A DNA stretch of 63,074 nt, the filler included, from Candidatus Nezhaarchaeota archaeon WYZ-LMO8 (GTDB taxonomy: Archaea > Thermoproteota > Methanomethylicia > Nezhaarchaeales > WYZ-LMO8), in the NCBI GenBank assembly GCA_004347965.1. It is 4 parts of 4 records of this genome, joined end to end, with 100 filler letters (N's around TTAATTAATTAA, not from the genome) between each part and the next. Parts side by side here need not be neighbours in the genome. Positions count along the whole stretch, not along the records: positions 1 to 17,232 come from QNVF01000026.1; 3 more parts are not named here. One strand, written 5' to 3'. The position numbers and the translations under genes are program-made. How positions within the stretch are numbered: the first letter of the stretch is position 1; each line of letters begins with the position of its first letter. Below, piece after piece: positions 1,636-50,985 of the stretch. The notes beneath the pieces are model-generated. The model searched no databases. It was not told the origin of the DNA and saw only the letters and a program-made list of their open reading frames with translations.

Positions 1636-2040
1636 CTGATAGTATATGACGTTGGATATGGAGCCTTTAAGTGCATTGGAAATTTCTTGAGTTTTTTAAA
1701 GGCTAAGAACATTGAAGTGGTTGTTGACGTGAGGGCCTTTCCTAGATCTAGAATCAAAGGTTTTAGTCGTGATGAGCTGAAAAGAGAGCTTGAGAAGAAT
1801 GGTTTAGAATATGTATGGCTTGGAGATAAACTTGGGGGATTTAGGAGGGGAGGTTATGAGGGCTACACGAAGGAGGAGGGCTTTAAGAGGGGGTTAGAAA
1901 TCCTTTCGATAATTGCACGTGATAAGAGGGTATGTTTGATGTGTCTTGAGAGGGACAGGAGGTTTTGCCATAGAAGGTTTATTGTAGAGAAGTTGAAGAG
2001 TGTGGGTTTTGAGGTTAAAGATCTGGTGAGGGGTGATTAA
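1636..2040 (+). CDS. DUF488 family protein (probable CTG start)
   Basis: VVDVRAFPRS, LGGFR, CLMCLERD...CHR motifs; family-type N-terminus IVYDVGY is in frame upstream of the track start, beginning at CTG 1636 after SD GAGGTGA. Confidence 0.85.
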   Translation: MIVYDVGYGAFKCIGNFLSFLKAKNIEVVVDVRAFPRSRIKGFSRDELKRELEKNGLEYVWLGDKLGGFRRGGYEGYTKEEGFKRGLEILSIIARDKRVCLMCLERDRRFCHRRFIVEKLKSVGFEVKDLVRGD

Positions 2041-2996
2041 TGTACAAAGTCTTAGACTTGTTCTGTGGGGCTGGTGGTTTCTCTCTCGGCTTTGTCATGG
2101 AGGGATTTAAGGTGCTGCTGGGAATTGATGTGGACTGGACGGTGGCGGAGACTTACAGCGAGAATCTTAAGGTAGATGTTTTATGTGAAGATATAAGAGA
2201 TATTCATTCTATCGACATAAAAGAGGTGATGAGTGATGACGCCGATGTCGTAATAGCAAGCCCTCCCTGTGAGCCATTTACGGGTGCTAATCCTCGAAGA
2301 GAGGTCAACGTGCTTGATAGACTCTATGGTGATGAAGTGGGAAGGCTTTTCCTCCACGCTATAAGAATCATAGGTGATCTAAAACCAAGACTATTCATAA
2401 TTGAGAACGTCCCTTCAATACTTGAAGGAACATTGAAAGAAGCGATTGAACACGAGCTTAGAGCTGTGGGATATAGTAAGATCTACTTCAACGTACTTTA
2501 TGCTGAGAATCATGGAACTCCATCCCATAGGAAGAGGGTCTTCATATCGAATTACAGGTTCAGGCTCAAGCCGATACGAAAGGTTATCGTTGTTGAAGAA
2601 GCTTTAGCAGGTCTTCCAAACCCAGAAGAAGTATGTGATATACCTAATCACGTGATAAAGCCCTTGCCTCCAAGGAAGCTTAAGAAGATAGCTAGACTGA
2701 AGTGGGGTGAAGAGTTAGTGCTGTATAAGGGTGCTGGAAGAAAAGTTCTACCAAATTGGATTAGGCTTCATCCATACAAATTAGCTCCAACGGTCCTTGG
2801 AAGCTCTAGGTTCATACATCCCTATGAGAATAGGCTTCTAACTGTGAGGGAGCAAGCAAGGTTGATGGGCTTCCCAGACAACTTCGTGTTTAAGGGAGGG
2901 TTTGATGCTCAATATAACATGATTGGAGAGGCTGTTCCTCCACCTATTTCAAGAGCTATAGCTAGAGAGACGCTTAGGTTATTAAGGGGTTCCTGA
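2040..2996 (+). CDS. Cytosine-C5 methyltransferase (Dcm family), orphan
   Basis: Motif I DLFCGAGG, catalytic SPPC, ENV, RKR, LTVRE.ARLMGFPD and GEAVPP. Confidence 0.9.
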   Translation: MYKVLDLFCGAGGFSLGFVMEGFKVLLGIDVDWTVAETYSENLKVDVLCEDIRDIHSIDIKEVMSDDADVVIASPPCEPFTGANPRREVNVLDRLYGDEVGRLFLHAIRIIGDLKPRLFIIENVPSILEGTLKEAIEHELRAVGYSKIYFNVLYAENHGTPSHRKRVFISNYRFRLKPIRKVIVVEEALAGLPNPEEVCDIPNHVIKPLPPRKLKKIARLKWGEELVLYKGAGRKVLPNWIRLHPYKLAPTVLGSSRFIHPYENRLLTVREQARLMGFPDNFVFKGGFDAQYNMIGEAVPPPISRAIARETLRLLRGS

Positions 2997-3017
2997 GGAA
3001 GTAGTAAACGGTTAAAG

Positions 3018-3488
3018 ATGAATGAAGTGATACCAGTACTACACAACGTGTTCAGCGTCGAGATAGTTAAGCAGTTCGCTAAGATATGCTACGGGTTAGG
3101 CTTTAAGACTCTCGTTATAAGCAAGCCTAGCGGTGCAGCAGCTCAAGCAGGGCTTCCAGAAGCACAAAAGCTTGCCCTCAAGAAGGGCAGGGCCCTCGTA
3201 GTACTTAGCGGGATAGAGGACGTGATTGAGGTCTTTAAACCACTCTTAGTGATTTTCATTACGCCTAAGAAGTATGCTAAAACTAGGTTTGATGCCGAGC
3301 ACATAATCTCTGAGCTCGAAAAAGGTCCTATAACAATAATCTTTGGCGGAAGTGAGCCAGGAATTTCAGCTAAAGAGATGGAGCTTGGAGTGCCAATGCA
3401 CATAGATGTTGAAGACGATCTAGGACCTCTTGGCTTCGCATCCATAACACTGAACATTATCTCAAATATCCTTAAGGTTAAGAAGTGA
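3018..3488 (+). CDS. DUF2122-like protein (SPOUT-like fold)
   Basis: VLHNVFS, SGAAAQAGLPEAQKLA, FGGSEPG motifs. Confidence 0.7.
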   Translation: MNEVIPVLHNVFSVEIVKQFAKICYGLGFKTLVISKPSGAAAQAGLPEAQKLALKKGRALVVLSGIEDVIEVFKPLLVIFITPKKYAKTRFDAEHIISELEKGPITIIFGGSEPGISAKEMELGVPMHIDVEDDLGPLGFASITLNIISNILKVKK

Positions 3489-7923: not shown

Positions 7924-10269
7924 TTAAGCCTTGAGACGGCAGTAGCCAACGATTACTTGTCCTACTGAGAGGCCTCCATCACCTGGAGGTAGGGCTCTAT
8001 GTCTTAGTAGCTTTAAGTTATACTTTGAAGCTACGTTCTCAATCGTTTCAAGCATTATTTCGTTAACAGCAGCACCCCCTGAGATCCCTATGATTTTTAT
8101 TCCCTCTTCCTGCGCTTTTGAACAAGCTATCTCAGCAAGCCCCTTAGCTATAGCTACTTGTGCTATGCGAGCTATCAAGCTTGGCGGAGTATTCTTCATA
8201 AGTGACACTAAGTGTGACGTTATGTGAGAAGCATCAACTATACTTGTCCTACCTCTATCGATTATGGGGATCTCGATCTCAATGTTGGCAGATGGATTGC
8301 TCATACGGGCAAGGGCTTCAAGCTTCATTGCTGGCTCACCCTCATAAGACCTGTAAGTGCATACTCCCAGCATGGCTGATATAGAATCTAGGATCCGCCC
8401 CGTACTCGATGAATGTATAACGTTAAAGCCTGAACTTAGCTGCTTTATAACCACGGGCACTTCACGAGGTCCATATTTAAAGGCTTTTGAAAATTTCTCA
8501 AGTAGAAGGCTTTCGAGCTCCTTGAGGCTCATGACTTGACTGAGCAAACCAGCTAAAGCCCTAATTGGATAGTATGCGCATATATCTCCTCCAGGCAAGG
8601 GATAGGGCTTTATGTGCCCCACTCTCTCATATCCCTCACACGTAGCCAATAGAACTTCCCCACCCCACGCAGTACCATCATCACCTAGCCCCACTCCATC
8701 CATTGTAATGTACACTGCTTCTTCATCAAGTCCAAGTCCTCCCTCAGCTGCAAGTGATGCAGCATGTGCATGGTGATGTTGAACCCTTATAAGGGGTATG
8801 CCCAATTCGCTGCTAAGTTCTTCAGCATATCGAGTTGAAGGGAAAGTACGATTCAAATCGCATGCGATAGCGTCTATCTTCCCTATTTTGAGGGCCTTCT
8901 TTAAGAAGTTGTAAGCTTGCTTTAGGAAGTTCAATGAATCTGGATTGTCAAGATCTCCTATGTGCTGGCTTACGTAGCAATTATCGTTTTTCAGGAGGGA
9001 GATGGTGACGTTAAAGTCGCCTCCAAATGCCACTATACACTTACCTTTATTGCGAAGTTTCGGAATCATTATCGGCAGGGGCGCATAACCTCTAGATCGA
9101 CGTAAGAAGGTTGGAACTCCATGAGATACCCTTATTACTGAGTCATCGCATCTATTCACTATCTCTCTGTTATGAGTTAAGTAGTAGTCAACTATCATTG
9201 AGAGTTTCTTTAAAGCATCTTCTGTTGACGTCACCATGGGCTCTCCAGGGTAGTTAGCACTCGTCATTATGATTGCTGGCTCATTGATGTGCATTAATAA
9301 GAGCAAATGTATGCCTGAGTAAGGTAACATGACCCCTACGCTGTCGAGGCCTGGAGAGACCAAAGGGGATATGGGGTTATTTGGCTTAGCTCTCAGTACA
9401 ACTATGGGGCGTTCTTTGGACAGAAGCAGGTCTCTCTCGATTTGATTGAGATAGGCAAAGCTTTCTACGTGATCAACTGATGGCGACATAACTGCGAACG
9501 GCTGTTGAGGTCTTCTACGTCTCTCTCTTAGTTTTAAGACTACATCATCGTCAGTGGCTAGGCATGCTATGTGAAAACCTCCTATACCCTTCACTGCGAC
9601 TATAAAGCCCTCTTTAATCAGTTTAGCTGCTTCCTTAATGGGATCTTCACAGGAAATTTTTAATCCATCGCGGTCTAGTAGCTCATTTTTAGGACCACAT
9701 AATCTGCAGCAAATCCCCTCAGCATGATATCTCCTGTTAGCTGGATCTTCATAATCCCTCTGACAAAATTTACATAGAGGAAATTTGGCCATGCTCGTGT
9801 GTTCGCGATCGTAAGGAATGTCAAGAATCATCGTGAACCTAGGTCCGCAGACAGCACAGCAAGTAAAGGGATAGTTTGACCATCGAGGGTCTTTACCCAT
9901 AATGTCGTTGATGCAATCATGACATATTGCTATGTCTGGTGGGATTGAGGAGCCACATTGCCTTACTCTTGAATCACTTGGCAGTATCTGAAATGCCCCG
10001 AATTCACCAGTGTATTCAAGCCATTCCACTGAAATGTTGTCGACGCGTGCAGGAGCAGGTTTCTCCAGCTTAAGCTTCTCGATAAATTGTTCAATGGAAC
10101 TTCTCTTACCCTCAACCACCACCTCTACTCCTGCATCTCCAAGATTAACCACGTAACCCTTGAGATCTAGTGATACAGCTAAGCGATAAACGAATGGTCT
10201 AAACCCCACTCCTTGAACTACTCCGCTAACATGGATGATGGCTTTCACTAGACTGCTCATTGCTTCCAA
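7924..10269 (-). CDS. hypF: Hydrogenase maturation carbamoyltransferase HypF
   Basis: Acylphosphatase [11 protein letters not shown], two CxxC zinc fingers, [22 protein letters not shown]. Confidence 0.97.
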
Positions 10270-10308
10270 TGACTGACAGCAAGATTCGTATTAAATTCTA
10301 CGCGTAAA

Positions 10309-10722
10309 TTAGAATCTTTTAACCTCCACTTTCTTGATAAGACGGTACACCCTATTCTTTCTTTCACCACGTCTCTCTAACATGCCATTATTGTAGAGCC
10401 TTAAGAGGTATGTGGAGACAGTAGATGGCTTTAAATCTTCATTGTAAGTTCTTCTATAAGCATCTAGAACGTCTTTGCTACTAAACCAGGAACCATCATT
10501 GAAGTTCCCTTCTATAACTTGCTTAAACCTTTCCATGAGAGTCTGTTCTTGTGTTTCGTTCTGAGTATTTGAGGCCTCAGCTGATGAGACTATATCTATT
10601 AGATCCTTAACCATCTGTATGCGCTTCCATGGTACGTTCTTACCCTGAAATATTATAATCATCTTAGAACCATCTGGAAATGACACTGTAAACCTGAAGT
10701 CGTTGTAAGCCATAATAATCAC
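10309..10722 (-). CDS. Winged helix-turn-helix protein adjacent to putative origin
   Basis: C-terminal WFSSKDVLDAY...STVSTYLLRLYNNGMLERRG...YRL is a wHTH pattern; small beta-rich N-terminal domain. Confidence 0.8.
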   Translation of the reverse strand: MIIMAYNDFRFTVSFPDGSKMIIIFQGKNVPWKRIQMVKDLIDIVSSAEASNTQNETQEQTLMERFKQVIEGNFNDGSWFSSKDVLDAYRRTYNEDLKPSTVSTYLLRLYNNGMLERRGERKNRVYRLIKKVEVKRF

Positions 10723-11103
10723 AGTAACTACACTCTACAGCTCACAACTTAATTTTCACAATTCACAGTTTTTTAAGCTTATCGTTGTAAGATCTTTATA
10801 TGAGAAAAAGAAGGATTCTATAGGGGAGCGTAAGAAAGCTTCATCCTGGTCTGAAAGGATATTCACTTTATGTCGAAAATGTAGAAGAATCTTCTTTCTG
10901 TAAAATTGCGCTTTTCATAAGAAATAAAGAAAAGAAAAGAAATTTTCACAAATAATTTAAAAACAGATAAGTTAAAATTCATGTGAAATTGTTAAAAATT
11001 ATCGAAAAGTTATAAGAATAAAATTCTACGAAAGATTTCTTCTCCTTTATGAAATACGTAGAAAAGTAAGATTCATTAAGTAGAGGTAGATCAATCTCCT
11101 AGA

Positions 11104-11123
11104 CCCCTACACTTCCAGTGGAG
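11104..11123 (-). promoter_or_regulatory. Origin recognition box (ORB), left
   Basis: Minus strand CTCCACTGGAAGTGTAGGGG matches the archaeal ORB pattern TCCA.TGGAA plus G-string. Confidence 0.8.
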
Positions 11124-11250
11124 GAATAGTAGAAAACTTTAGGATGAGGTGTAATAATAATACATTATTACTAAATCGATGAAGTTCCATAGTCTTATTC
11201 TCTTAAGATTTTTCACTATCAATAAAATTACTAAGTAGGTTGAGAGTGTT

Positions 11251-11270
11251 TTCCACTGGAAGTATGGGGG
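11251..11270 (+). promoter_or_regulatory. Origin recognition box (ORB), right
   Basis: TTCCACTGGAAGTATGGGGG; inverted relative to the left ORB, 17/20 identical. Confidence 0.8.
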
Positions 11271-11438
11271 TTAACGAGATCACTTGAGGAAATCTCTTAG
11301 TTGTTTTCCTATGTTCGTTTAAACATAGCCTTCAAGTAATCTTAATTTTTGAAGAAAAGTTTTTGTGAACCCTTATCTAGTACGCTATCTGGGTTCTAAG
11401 AACAAATCGTAAGGCGGAGTGCGCCATCTAGGTCGTAA

Positions 11439-11516
11439 AGCGGGGTGGGGAAGTCAGGTTATCCCGCGGGGCTCATAACCCCGAGATCGGTGGTTCAAAT
11501 CCACCCCCCGCTACCA
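11439..11516 (+). tRNA. Initiator tRNA-Met(CAT)
   Basis: A1:T72 pair, consecutive G-C pairs in the anticodon stem CGGGG-CTCATAA-CCCCG, TTCAAAT T-loop, encoded CCA. Confidence 0.95.
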
Positions 11517-11962
11517 CCATTTTCTTCAACTAAGAGTCTCTATTGCAATAGATTTGTTACAGTAGAGAAGCAAGAAGCAATAAAATAGTGTGGTTATTTT
11601 CTGCTAGATTATTTCCGAGAGGATCTTTCTCTTTTATTATTGACTTTGGTATGATGTTTGCGCGTTAAAGGCCGTTGTTCCAACCTCATCAGTGACGTTT
11701 GCTATGAGGGGTCGATGAGTGACCTAAGTTGAGGATTAAAGGTTGGTAATAGTAATGAATAACGATCTTAATCTTCGATTAAGTTCTCTCGGCTTAATCC
11801 ATGATGTAGAATGTAAACGTTGTCCGACAACCAAAAAAGCCTACCTCCTTTATGGTAAATCAAAATCCCTTGAAACTTCAAAAACTCTGCAGTTCCTAAA
11901 CTCATCCTTTTGTTCCCTACACATCCTTTTGGCTGTTCCACAAAACGCCGATCTAACATTAG

Positions 11963-12152
11963 CATGGTTAATTATGCTAGCTATCGATTGTGCTGCTTCT
12001 CCATAAATAAGTGCTAGTGGAATTATGAAGTGTAGGAGGAGTAGTGGAGTAAGCCTGGTGTTAACGACTAAATGAGAACATTGCCAGTGCAGATTGCTGC
12101 TAAGCCTAGAGCTGCTGGATTTCTAGCTTTCTCTGATACTCTTAATAACCAT
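11963..12152 (-). pseudogene. Degraded acetate uptake transporter (GPR1/FUN34/YaaH, SatP-like) remnant
   Basis: Fragments in different frames: EKARNPAALGLAA and FIIPLALIYGEAAQSIASII resemble the family motifs NPAPLGL and YGG.AQ.IAG. Confidence 0.5.
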
Positions 12153-12350
12153 TATTTCAGTATCGGTTAAGCTCTTGAGAAAAGACTTCCGTAAGAGAAG
12201 TTGGCATCTTTAAGGAAGTAGGAGACTTAAGGTGTTTTTCATAGCGAACTTATAATGACACGTTAACCTTAAGTAAGCATCTTCATCATGCTTGGTCATA
12301 CTTAACTGACTTGAGCAAAAATGATATTCAAGTTTGACAAAAAGTAACTT

Positions 12351-12947
12351 GTGAGGTCAAGGAAAGCTAGAATTCGCCGCTTATATGACTTTACCTCAGA
12401 GTTCTATGATGGGCTTTACGGTTACGAACAAGAAAAGAAGTTTACATCCATTTTCAACCTCCTTAGGAACTCGAAATTTAATGTGATGCTCGATGCCGGT
12501 TGCGGAACTGGATTAATCACTAAGAAACTTCAGGGTAAAGGAAACTTCATTGTGGGCGTTGACTTCTCTAAGGGGATGCTCCAGAGAGCTAAAGAAAAGC
12601 TTGGTAAGGTAATAAAGATGGATTTCGTGCTAGGTGATATCGAGTACTTACCCTTTCGCTCTAAATCCTTTGATTTAGTTTTAAGCATAACAGTTTTACA
12701 AAACTGTAACCCTCTAAGAGCACTTAAATCGCTCTTACGAGTATTATCTAATAGCGGTGTACTGGTTCTCAGCTATCTCAAGAGATCGAAGGAAGTAAAG
12801 GAGTTTGAAGCTAAGCTAAAAGATTACGTTTTAAAGGACTTGGACTTAATTGACAACGTAGTAATTTTAAGTGGACAGCAGGCTATGAACCTAGTCGGCA
12901 AAAGAAGCTGGAAGATTGAAGTGAAAGCTCATGGTATCGCGCATTAG
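12351..12947 (+). CDS. Class I SAM-dependent methyltransferase
   Basis: MLDAGCGTG, GVDFSKGML, LPFRSKSFDLV. Confidence 0.9.
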   Translation: MRSRKARIRRLYDFTSEFYDGLYGYEQEKKFTSIFNLLRNSKFNVMLDAGCGTGLITKKLQGKGNFIVGVDFSKGMLQRAKEKLGKVIKMDFVLGDIEYLPFRSKSFDLVLSITVLQNCNPLRALKSLLRVLSNSGVLVLSYLKRSKEVKEFEAKLKDYVLKDLDLIDNVVILSGQQAMNLVGKRSWKIEVKAHGIAH

Positions 12948-17232: not shown

Positions 17233-17332
17233 NNNNNNNNNNNNNNNNNNNNNNNNNNNNNNNNNNNNNNNNNNNNTTAATTAATTAANNNNNNNNNNNN
17301 NNNNNNNNNNNNNNNNNNNNNNNNNNNNNNNN
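17233..17332. other. Artificial contig spacer
   Basis: N-run, TTAATTAATTAA (stops in all six frames), N-run; 100 bp. Confidence 0.98.
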
Positions 17333-34079: not shown

Positions 34080-34179
34080 NNNNNNNNNNNNNNNNNNNNN
34101 NNNNNNNNNNNNNNNNNNNNNNNTTAATTAATTAANNNNNNNNNNNNNNNNNNNNNNNNNNNNNNNNNNNNNNNNNNNN
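34080..34179. other. Artificial contig spacer
   Basis: N-run, TTAATTAATTAA, N-run. Confidence 0.98.
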
Positions 34180-50885: not shown

Positions 50886-50985
50886 NNNNNNNNNNNNNNN
50901 NNNNNNNNNNNNNNNNNNNNNNNNNNNNNTTAATTAATTAANNNNNNNNNNNNNNNNNNNNNNNNNNNNNNNNNNNNNNNNNNNN
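50886..50985. other. Artificial contig spacer
   Basis: N-run, TTAATTAATTAA, N-run. Confidence 0.98.

Follow-up and report, generated by a model that had tools for sequence, protein, structure and literature searches.

Archaeal replication origins are usually treated as replicator-initiator pairs, in which orc1 lies beside its origin recognition boxes (ORBs). What kind of origin, then, is formed by an inverted pair of ORBs that lies between a small winged-helix (wH) gene and a tRNA-Met gene, on a contig without orc1? We asked this of a 63,074-bp stretch of DNA from Candidatus Nezhaarchaeota archaeon WYZ-LMO8 (hereafter the window), in which four contigs are joined by N runs at 17233-17332, 34080-34179 and 50886-50985. 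Because these runs separate four contigs, genes across a join are not neighbours; the locus in question lies on contig 1 (1-17232). Judged from its sequence and that of related loci, it very likely serves a hot-spring archaeon as the main origin of its chromosome. The origin belongs to the known ORB/oriC1 kind, and its missing orc1 neighbour is a variant of that plan. The elements at its core are the following.

10309..10713, minus strand: wH gene, 134 aa (open reading frame (ORF) as listed 10309-10722, with the ATG at 10713 set by homologues)
11094..11123, minus strand: left ORB, with its dyad TTCCAGTGGAA toward the spacer and its G-string (CCCC on the plus strand) outward
11124..11250 (127 bp), no strand: AT-rich spacer between the inverted ORBs
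11251..11280, plus strand: right ORB (TTCCACTGGAAGTATGGGGGT), with its G-string outward
11439..11516, plus strand: tRNA-Met(CAT), scoring 66 bits against the Rfam tRNA model and with an encoded CCA end

The initial annotation, made from the window alone, had described two inverted ORBs with similarity over about 30 bp, and this description holds. The two boxes form a 29-nt inverted repeat (I1) with arms at 11094-11122 and 11252-11280 that are 83% complementary and 129 nt apart, and the 12-mer TCCACTGGAAGT has its only exact copies in the 63,074 bp at 11111-11122(-) and 11252-11263(+). When ORB boxes were scored with the full pattern TCCASTGGAANNNNNGGGG, allowing up to two mismatches, the window contained two matches, both at this locus and each with 0 mismatches (11104-11122 minus and 11252-11270 plus). 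Shuffled controls at the same threshold gave a mean of 0.38 matches and reached two matches in 4 of 100 shuffles. The polarity that had been reported, with the dyads toward the central spacer and the G-strings outward, can be read directly from the sequence. Both of the AT-rich tracts noted earlier were also recovered: A+T is 0.577 over the contig, 0.684 over the 716-bp non-coding spacer between the wH ORF and the tRNA, 0.732 between the boxes (11124-11250) and 0.766 in a second tract at 10860-11090. The sequence between the boxes is a probable duplex-unwinding element (DUE). Among 32 related loci with an ORB pair in the same (-,+) arrangement, the corresponding spacer has a median length of 162 bp and an A+T of 0.756, against 0.642 in the surrounding 1.5 kb.

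The two flanking genes are present as annotated, except that the wH protein is shortened from 137 to 134 aa by the start codon of its homologues. An initiator tRNA-Met is recognised by a CAT anticodon, the end pair A1:U72 and an anticodon stem with three G:C pairs at its base. The tRNA of the window has the A1:U72 pair and GGG/CCC in its anticodon stem, which are initiator-type features (tRNA-iMet). A search with Rfam over 10200-12500 returned nothing except this tRNA, and a scan for bacterial promoters and terminators gave nothing above shuffles, with bacterial models that are not applicable to archaea. The absence of orc1/cdc6 from the contig was confirmed, as no Orc1/Cdc6 family was found among the 52 window ORFs scanned with Pfam, and a tblastn search of the window with two Orc1 proteins of a relative had a best E-value of 0.78.

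To place the locus in its lineage, we took six Nezhaarchaeales loci from species-representative genomes and aligned five Nezhaarchaeales sequences (alignment A2); all genome-wide statements below, on the uniqueness of the ORBs and the location of orc1, come from relatives' genomes. A search of sequencing runs listed the locus in DNA contigs from hot-spring metagenomes only, and in no RNA data set. Homologues of the 134-aa wH protein labelled Candidatus Nezhaarchaeales are 74-100% identical to it. The arrangement of wH gene, ORB pair and tRNA-iMet, the synteny of which had been suggested as a check, is kept across the Nezhaarchaeales loci. In A2, both ORBs, their G-strings and the tRNA are invariant in all five sequences and the remaining spacer diverges, apart from two conserved stretches, a block close to the tRNA and one of about 45 bp immediately before the wH start. 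The motif TCCASTGGAA occurs upstream of the wH gene at five of the six loci, the sixth having a flank of 171 bp only. The tRNA-Met neighbour is present at L001, L004 and L005, and the sequence of L003 stops inside the tRNA.

ORB matches in these relatives are concentrated at the wH gene. Scanning whole genomes at up to one mismatch, we found that all nine matches of G001, G002, G003 and G005 are at the wH locus; the genome-wide scatter of ORB-like pairs that had been named as a refutation is not seen. The more distant G004 has two of its four matches there, and the reversed pattern, used as a control, gave five matches over the five genomes. The same picture extends to the class of G003 and the window, in which 61 genomes were searched. 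The wH family occurs once each in 41 of these, with one member cluster labelled Ca. Methanomethylicia, and ORBs lie upstream of the wH gene at 27 of 30 class loci, the three misses having less than 200 bp of upstream flank. At the 20 wider class loci, ORBs were found within 1 kb upstream of the wH gene in 19, and a tRNA with a CAT anticodon 0.6-5.4 kb upstream in 15 (12 clean calls and 3 irregular ones).

The initiator itself is encoded elsewhere. The Orc1 family TIGR02928 was matched above its cut-off in 5/5 Nezhaarchaeales genomes and in 60 of the 61 class genomes, and the orc1 genes of Nezhaarchaeales relatives lie 145-522 kb from the locus where both are on the same contig. The 1.02-Mb contig of G003, for example, carries orc1 genes at 145 kb and 989 kb and the wH gene at 667 kb. 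Both genes share a contig in 14 class genomes, and in 13 of these the nearest orc1 is 42-322 kb from the wH gene. Around four orc1 genes examined (in G003, G051 and G014), no ORB was found within about 8 kb. Since the relatives' orc1 genes lie this far from the ORB locus, Orc1 would have to act here in trans, as had been proposed. The one exception is G006, where orc1 is 2.7 kb from the wH gene and has its own ORB pair. Along this locus (L047, G006:C34, 2672-6996), orc1 is followed by two ORBs 120 bp apart, a 367-aa ORF on the same strand as orc1, a lone ORB and then the wH gene, an arrangement that resembles a transitional stage in the parting of orc1 and origin.

Loci outside the window's class show where this arrangement may have come from. 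Among 400 sampled genomes of the phylum, the wH family was found in 256 (E <= 1e-8), nearly always as a single copy, and 40 loci from outside the class were compared. In 28 of these, an orc1-1-like ORF, 49-56% identical to the best Orc1 of G003, is divergent from the wH gene with two to four ORBs between them. Three more have ORBs with no orc1 in view, two of which stop at a contig end, so that ORBs are present at 31 of the 40 loci; the remaining nine have neither ORB nor orc1. Over the 40 loci together, the 39.3 kb upstream of the wH gene contain 84 ORB matches and the remaining 587.5 kb contain 5; the reversed control has none upstream. By this comparison, the wH gene is the ancestral second flank of the canonical orc1-oriC1 module in much of the phylum. 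Given that it lies opposite orc1-1 across the ORBs in so many outside loci, it is the orc1 flank that the window's class has lost, and the wH flank that remains. In the window, tRNA-iMet takes the side of the origin on which orc1 lies in other lineages. The suggestions that the wH gene stands at the origin instead of orc1, and that the origin is a hybrid, are both contradicted by these 28 loci, where the same gene and ORB array adjoin orc1-1.

Five genomes without a wH match were also inspected. One, G064, has orc1 with an ORB pair; in each of the remaining four, orc1 is single and divergent, and the pattern used detects no ORB. In G064 (L194, G064:C5, 8413-9611), two other small ORFs that contain helix-turn-helix-like segments flank the ORB pair beside orc1-1. 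One of them encodes a 220-aa protein that has a hydrophobic stretch at the N-terminus and a wH-like motif at the C-terminus. These ORFs may be a non-homologous replacement of the wH gene. The nine outside loci at which the wH gene has no ORB or orc1 within about 8 kb (L172, L177-L179, L181-L184 and L191) have features of their own. Six of them have a tRNA-Pro about 1-3.3 kb or less from the wH gene, and other hexamers, such as TGGCCA, are enriched upstream. In five of these loci, the sequence before the wH gene was searched for repeats, and no ORB-like family was found. They probably form a different class, in which the gene has left the origin or the ORBs have diverged beyond the pattern used.

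The 716-bp spacer has further features, as follows.

10723..10790, minus strand: conserved block upstream of the wH start, near-invariant in A2 (5 sequences)
10860..11090, no strand: second AT-rich tract, between the ORB relic region and the left ORB
10911..10935, plus strand: decayed third (proximal) ORB, with the G-string replaced by A-rich sequence
10944..10988, no strand: inverted repeat I2, TTTCACA...TGTGAAA, with 17-nt arms that are 76% complementary and 11 nt apart
11355..11372, plus strand: conserved AAAAGTTTTTGTGAACC block, 67-84 bp upstream of the tRNA, with ten invariant A2 columns

We anchored start codons on the wH-family profile. Of the 55 loci with at least one ORB, 38 have the ORB nearest to the gene starting between -194 and -235. 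This nearest ORB is on the strand opposite to the wH gene, with its G-string end distal to the gene. This proximal ORB is a relic in the window and intact in relatives: the sequence at 10911-10935 aligns in A2 with the intact ORB of L005/G003, and the box of G003 is at -218.

The same region carries a phased hexamer. Over 61 non-redundant loci, counted in 25-bp bins on the sense strand of the gene, TGTGAA occurs 26 times in the bin at -50, 26 times at -150, 11 times at -250, and 19 and 9 times at -325 and -300, respectively, with a background of about 0.55 per bin. Among hexamers it ranks first in enrichment at 28 of 30 outside loci (23-fold) and at all six Nezhaarchaeales loci (27-fold). On the orc1 side it is at background, and it is absent near the ORB pair of a genome without the wH gene. 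Tandem sites (TGTGAA-N-TGTGAA) are scarce across whole genomes, and of the 19 in six genomes, nine are at the wH-origin locus. Of 39 TGTGAA in the window, five are inside the 716-bp spacer, including a tandem pair at -47 and -54, just downstream of the TATA-like TTAAAAAA, and another at -237 beside the ORB relic. The tandem pair (10755-10760 and 10762-10767) and TGTGAG/TGTAGA repeats follow TTAAAAAA within the conserved block at 10723-10790, which is probably the promoter and operator of the wH gene. Repeat I2 sits in the second AT-rich tract beside the ORB relic, with TGTGAA at 10945-10950(-) and 10982-10987(+), and is a candidate site for a dimeric factor. The AAAAGTTTTTGTGAACC block contains TGTGAA at 11364-11369(+) and may be part of the tRNA promoter or one more TGTGAA site. 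At non-Nezhaarchaeales loci of the class (L104-L119), the proximal ORB reads GGAGTGGAAGTGAAGGGGTGAA in many cases, with GTGAA in the ORB spacer and just after the G-string. Free TGTGAA repeats show no enrichment there, and the box might combine the two elements in fused form.

What the wH gene encodes was approached through its sequence family and predicted structure. The family profile matches 414 clusters at 50% identity with E <= 1e-3, of which 302 reach E <= 1e-10, and 3533 clusters at 90% identity with E <= 1e-6. Most of the latter are labelled 'hypothetical protein' of Bathyarchaeia, with Nitrosopumilus sp. and Ca. Ranarchaeia among the other labels. Our search of one literature library found no paper on this protein family, or on origins of Nezhaarchaeota, Verstraetearchaeota or Bathyarchaeota. 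Two AlphaFold models, with a mean predicted local distance difference test score (pLDDT) of 73.7 and, from a deeper 111-row alignment, 71.5, agree on the architecture: a beta-hairpin and a helix at the N-terminus, then a linker of low confidence, and at the C-terminus a four-helix winged helix (pLDDT ~85). Both contain a single wH domain; the N-terminal domain is of low confidence, and the deeper alignment brought no gain.

Sequence searches place the wH domain nearest to the BlaI/MecI/CopY repressors (Penicillinase_R). The window protein had two Pfam matches at E <= 1, to Penicillinase_R (20.7 bits; cut-off 22.6) and to WGG, and none to the CDT1 family. In 38 relatives, Penicillinase_R had E <= 1e-3 in four wH proteins and exceeded the 22.6-bit cut-off in three. 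Among 17 family members searched against NCBIfam, weak MecI/CopY matches were found (MecI in 10) and no initiator family was matched, and a sequence search of the PDB returned MecI (E 3.9e-4 over ~50 residues). BlaI and MecI carry their wH domain at the N-terminus, consistent with the aligned ranges here; in the models of the window protein, it is instead predicted to be C-terminal, after the hairpin-helix domain. Foldseek found no match to the wH protein in the PDB at E <= 1e-3 (best E 9e-3). A fold search gave Fur (Z 10.2) and the wH domains of cullin and PadR, together with human OCCM chains (Z 9.1), the C-terminal wH domain of Sulfolobus MCM (Z 8.2) and Drosophila ORC-Cdc6 (Z 8.0). As a group, the chains of human OCCM, OC1M and Drosophila ORC-Cdc6 (Z 8.0-9.1) are level with the wH domains of Fur, cullin and PadR (Z 8-10.2). 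The protein belongs to an uncharacterised family with a generic wH domain that no curated family covers, and its role at the origin is putative. A comparison with the winged helices of WhiP, Cdt1 and Orc1 had been proposed as a check, and these family and fold searches gave no specific link to any of the three; its proposed part as a co-initiator or regulator can be offered only tentatively.

On balance, and with some reserve, we favour the following reading of the locus as a whole: it would be an oriC1-type Orc1-1 origin that has lost orc1 from its flank, and the wH gene would be the ancestral flank, with a product that binds TGTGAA. Orc1-1 monomers would bind the two inverted ORBs flanking the AT-rich unwinding element and load MCM there. 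The anatomy and conservation of the boxes, their uniqueness in relatives' genomes, the synteny and the positional enrichment of the hexamer are what our data show; Orc1 binding and the firing of the origin we infer. The third, wH-proximal ORB would have decayed in this species. In the ancestor of the window's class, orc1-1 would have parted from the origin, leaving an initiator that acts in trans and tRNA-iMet on the former orc1 side. The wH protein is most likely a sequence-specific DNA binder that oligomerises through its N-terminal hairpin and helix, and it would bind the sense-oriented TGTGAA repeats. The set at about -50, just downstream of the wH TATA box, would serve autoregulation by repression of its own promoter, and the other sites would bracket the proximal ORB at intervals of about 100 bp. 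In this way, the expression of the wH gene would be coupled to the origin, and so, possibly, would Orc1 occupancy or helicase loading on that side.

Three other explanations have to be weighed against this one. The initial annotation proposed a hybrid origin, perhaps captured from a mobile element at a tRNA, where the wH protein would be a WhiP-like initiator beside a trans-acting Orc1. A tRNA does adjoin the origin and orc1 is not a neighbour, and a precedent exists in oriC3 and whiP, proposed to derive from extrachromosomal capture (PMC4010727). However, the 17 contig-1 ORFs of the 52-ORF scan include no integrase family, the 25-nt 3' end of the tRNA occurs once at up to three mismatches and has no second copy, and the wH protein has one modelled wH domain and no match to CDT1 or another initiator family. 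As a single-copy core gene in the 256 genomes mentioned above, the wH gene belongs to a module that is vertically inherited across class and phylum. The capture reading is largely refuted because outgroup loci show the wH gene beside an orc1-oriC1, and we hold it to be very improbable. A stronger contender, which we nevertheless consider rather unlikely, is that the origin is real and the wH protein plays no role in replication, being a conventional transcription factor, of the BlaI/CopY or ArsR kind, that regulates its own gene. The gene would then stay at the origin only because the long regulatory spacer is hard to break up. The only family resemblances of the protein are indeed to repressors, and the strongest TGTGAA site, just downstream of the TATA-like box, is in the classic repressor position. 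The nine outside loci with the wH gene away from any ORB also imply that the gene can function away from an ORB origin. This explanation does less well with the linkage of wH gene and ORBs, which outlasted that of orc1 and origin across a whole class, with the ORB-to-start spacing of about 215 bp fixed in 38 of 55 loci, and with the TGTGAA sites at about -150, -250 and -320, which bracket the ORB well upstream of any promoter.

Alternatively, the ORBs might be mainly Orc1-dependent operators for the wH gene and the tRNA, with replication starting elsewhere. An Orc1 paralogue with a regulatory, non-initiator role has been described (PMC9738581), and skew minima off the locus would fit such a reading. 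On the 1.02-Mb contig of G003 (G003:C1), where we computed GC skew, RY/MK disparity, gene-orientation bias and third-position skew, the minima are at 727 kb for GC skew, 773 kb for RY disparity and 727 kb for gene orientation, with the locus at 667 kb. The trough that contains the locus is broad and flat, so these measures speak neither for nor against an origin there. Against the operator explanation, the inverted pair, the AT-rich spacer and the third ORB fit the plan of oriC1, with ORB2 and ORB3 inverted around the DUE (PMC12141716), the cluster is the only one in each of four relatives' genomes, and in outgroups the array adjoins orc1-1. We regard this explanation as improbable.

Several observations count against the reading that we favour. 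The skew, disparity and gene-orientation measures on G003:C1 show no sharp switch at the locus, and the Orc1-1 of the window's own organism is assumed from relatives. The wH family was unmatched in 144 of the 400 phylum genomes at the threshold given, and G064 has its orc1-ORB pair without a wH gene. No enrichment of TGTGAA is seen upstream of the wH gene at 17 class loci from outside Nezhaarchaeales or at the nine outside loci lacking ORBs, although the recognition-helix motif STxSTYLxRL is conserved in all of these 17 + 9 loci. The protein is a generic winged helix, with replication wH domains within about 2 Z of Fur, and an hhalign comparison of the family with Orc1-1 pairs the wH regions at a probability of only 0.2%. 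Finally, synteny kept over long periods can persist without shared function. A more far-reaching version of the favoured reading, in which the wH family would be an unrecognised oriC1 accessory factor in much of Thermoproteota that binds phased, sense-oriented TGTGAA arrays on both sides of the gene-proximal ORB and is coupled in cis to the origin, is one that we put forward as speculative and, for the present, doubtful.

The genes around the module are ordinary ones outside it. Directly downstream of the wH gene is a full-length HypF carbamoyltransferase gene (7924-10269, minus), and a C5 cytosine DNA methylase gene followed by a DUF2122 RecB-family nuclease gene lies at 2040-3488 (plus) on contig 1. 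Between the tRNA and a methyltransferase gene, the remains of a GPR1/FUN34/YaaH-family membrane protein gene are present at 11560-12130 (minus), with a frame that reads ...NPAALGLAA... and then contains many stops. An intact 184-aa counterpart is found in the relative L001 (8553-9107; Pfam PF01184, E 3.5e-42). The decay of this gene accounts for an 830-bp stretch without a long ORF.

How does the locus compare with origins that are already known? Of the features of oriC1-type origins, it has the dyad core (TTCC...GAA) with a G-string, the inverted ORBs around an AT-rich element and, in four relatives, the rarity of the cluster. An adjacent orc1/cdc6 is missing here and present in the 28 outside loci with the same module, which makes orc1 adjacency at ORB origins typical rather than obligatory. 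The mini-ORB of Pyrococcus abyssi is printed as 'TTCCAGTGGAACT', with perfectly conserved 'TTCC' and 'GAA' motifs, and the dyad core of the window is identical to it over 11 bases (PMC1904270). The Pyrococcus oriC is likewise a near-sole ORB cluster in its genome, but it lies beside cdc6/orc1 and the dp1 gene, and a wH neighbour is not reported. Of the three ORBs in Sulfolobus oriC1, two flank an AT-rich element of about 130 bp in inverted orientation, and Orc1-1 binds all three, each with a defined polarity (PMC12141716). The window is similar, with its pair 127 bp apart and a third ORB as a relic that is intact in relatives. Unlike the window and its class, Sulfolobus oriC1 has orc1-1 immediately adjacent, whereas here the wH gene stays beside the origin, with a phased TGTGAA array on that side.

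Sulfolobus oriC3 resembles the locus in that it adjoins a winged-helix gene and is not defined by an adjacent orc1 (PMC4010727). Its WhiP is a Cdt1-related initiator (PMC4010727), whereas the wH origin of the window has canonical ORBs and a counterpart beside orc1-1 in outgroups, and its wH protein matches neither the CDT1 family nor another initiator. A different parallel is UBP of Sulfolobales. This non-initiator protein recognises ucm, a short conserved motif within the origin, and origin activity depends on UBP (PMC12141716). It is a nucleoid protein with a beta-rich, saddle-like shape and more than 300 sites, and its gene is not described as origin-linked (PMC12141716), in contrast to the window protein, which is a winged helix encoded at the origin.

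These results show that a whole class keeps a canonical ORB origin with its initiator gene tens to hundreds of kilobases away, so that origin finders anchored on orc1 would miss the ORB origin of the class. They also bring to light a widespread, unnamed small wH protein, the gene of which is tied to oriC1 more tightly than orc1 itself, together with a positionally fixed ORB and phased repeats. What gives the finding its value is, more than the window itself, the phylum-wide wH-oriC1 module that comparison exposed. This module bears on whether archaeal origins outside Sulfolobales use a dedicated accessory DNA-binding factor, UBP being the one such factor found in the literature searched (PMC12141716). 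If the wH protein were such a factor, coupling in cis would explain why evolution detached orc1-1, and not the wH gene, in a whole class, and the minimal replicator unit in these archaea would be the ORBs with the wH module rather than the ORBs with orc1.

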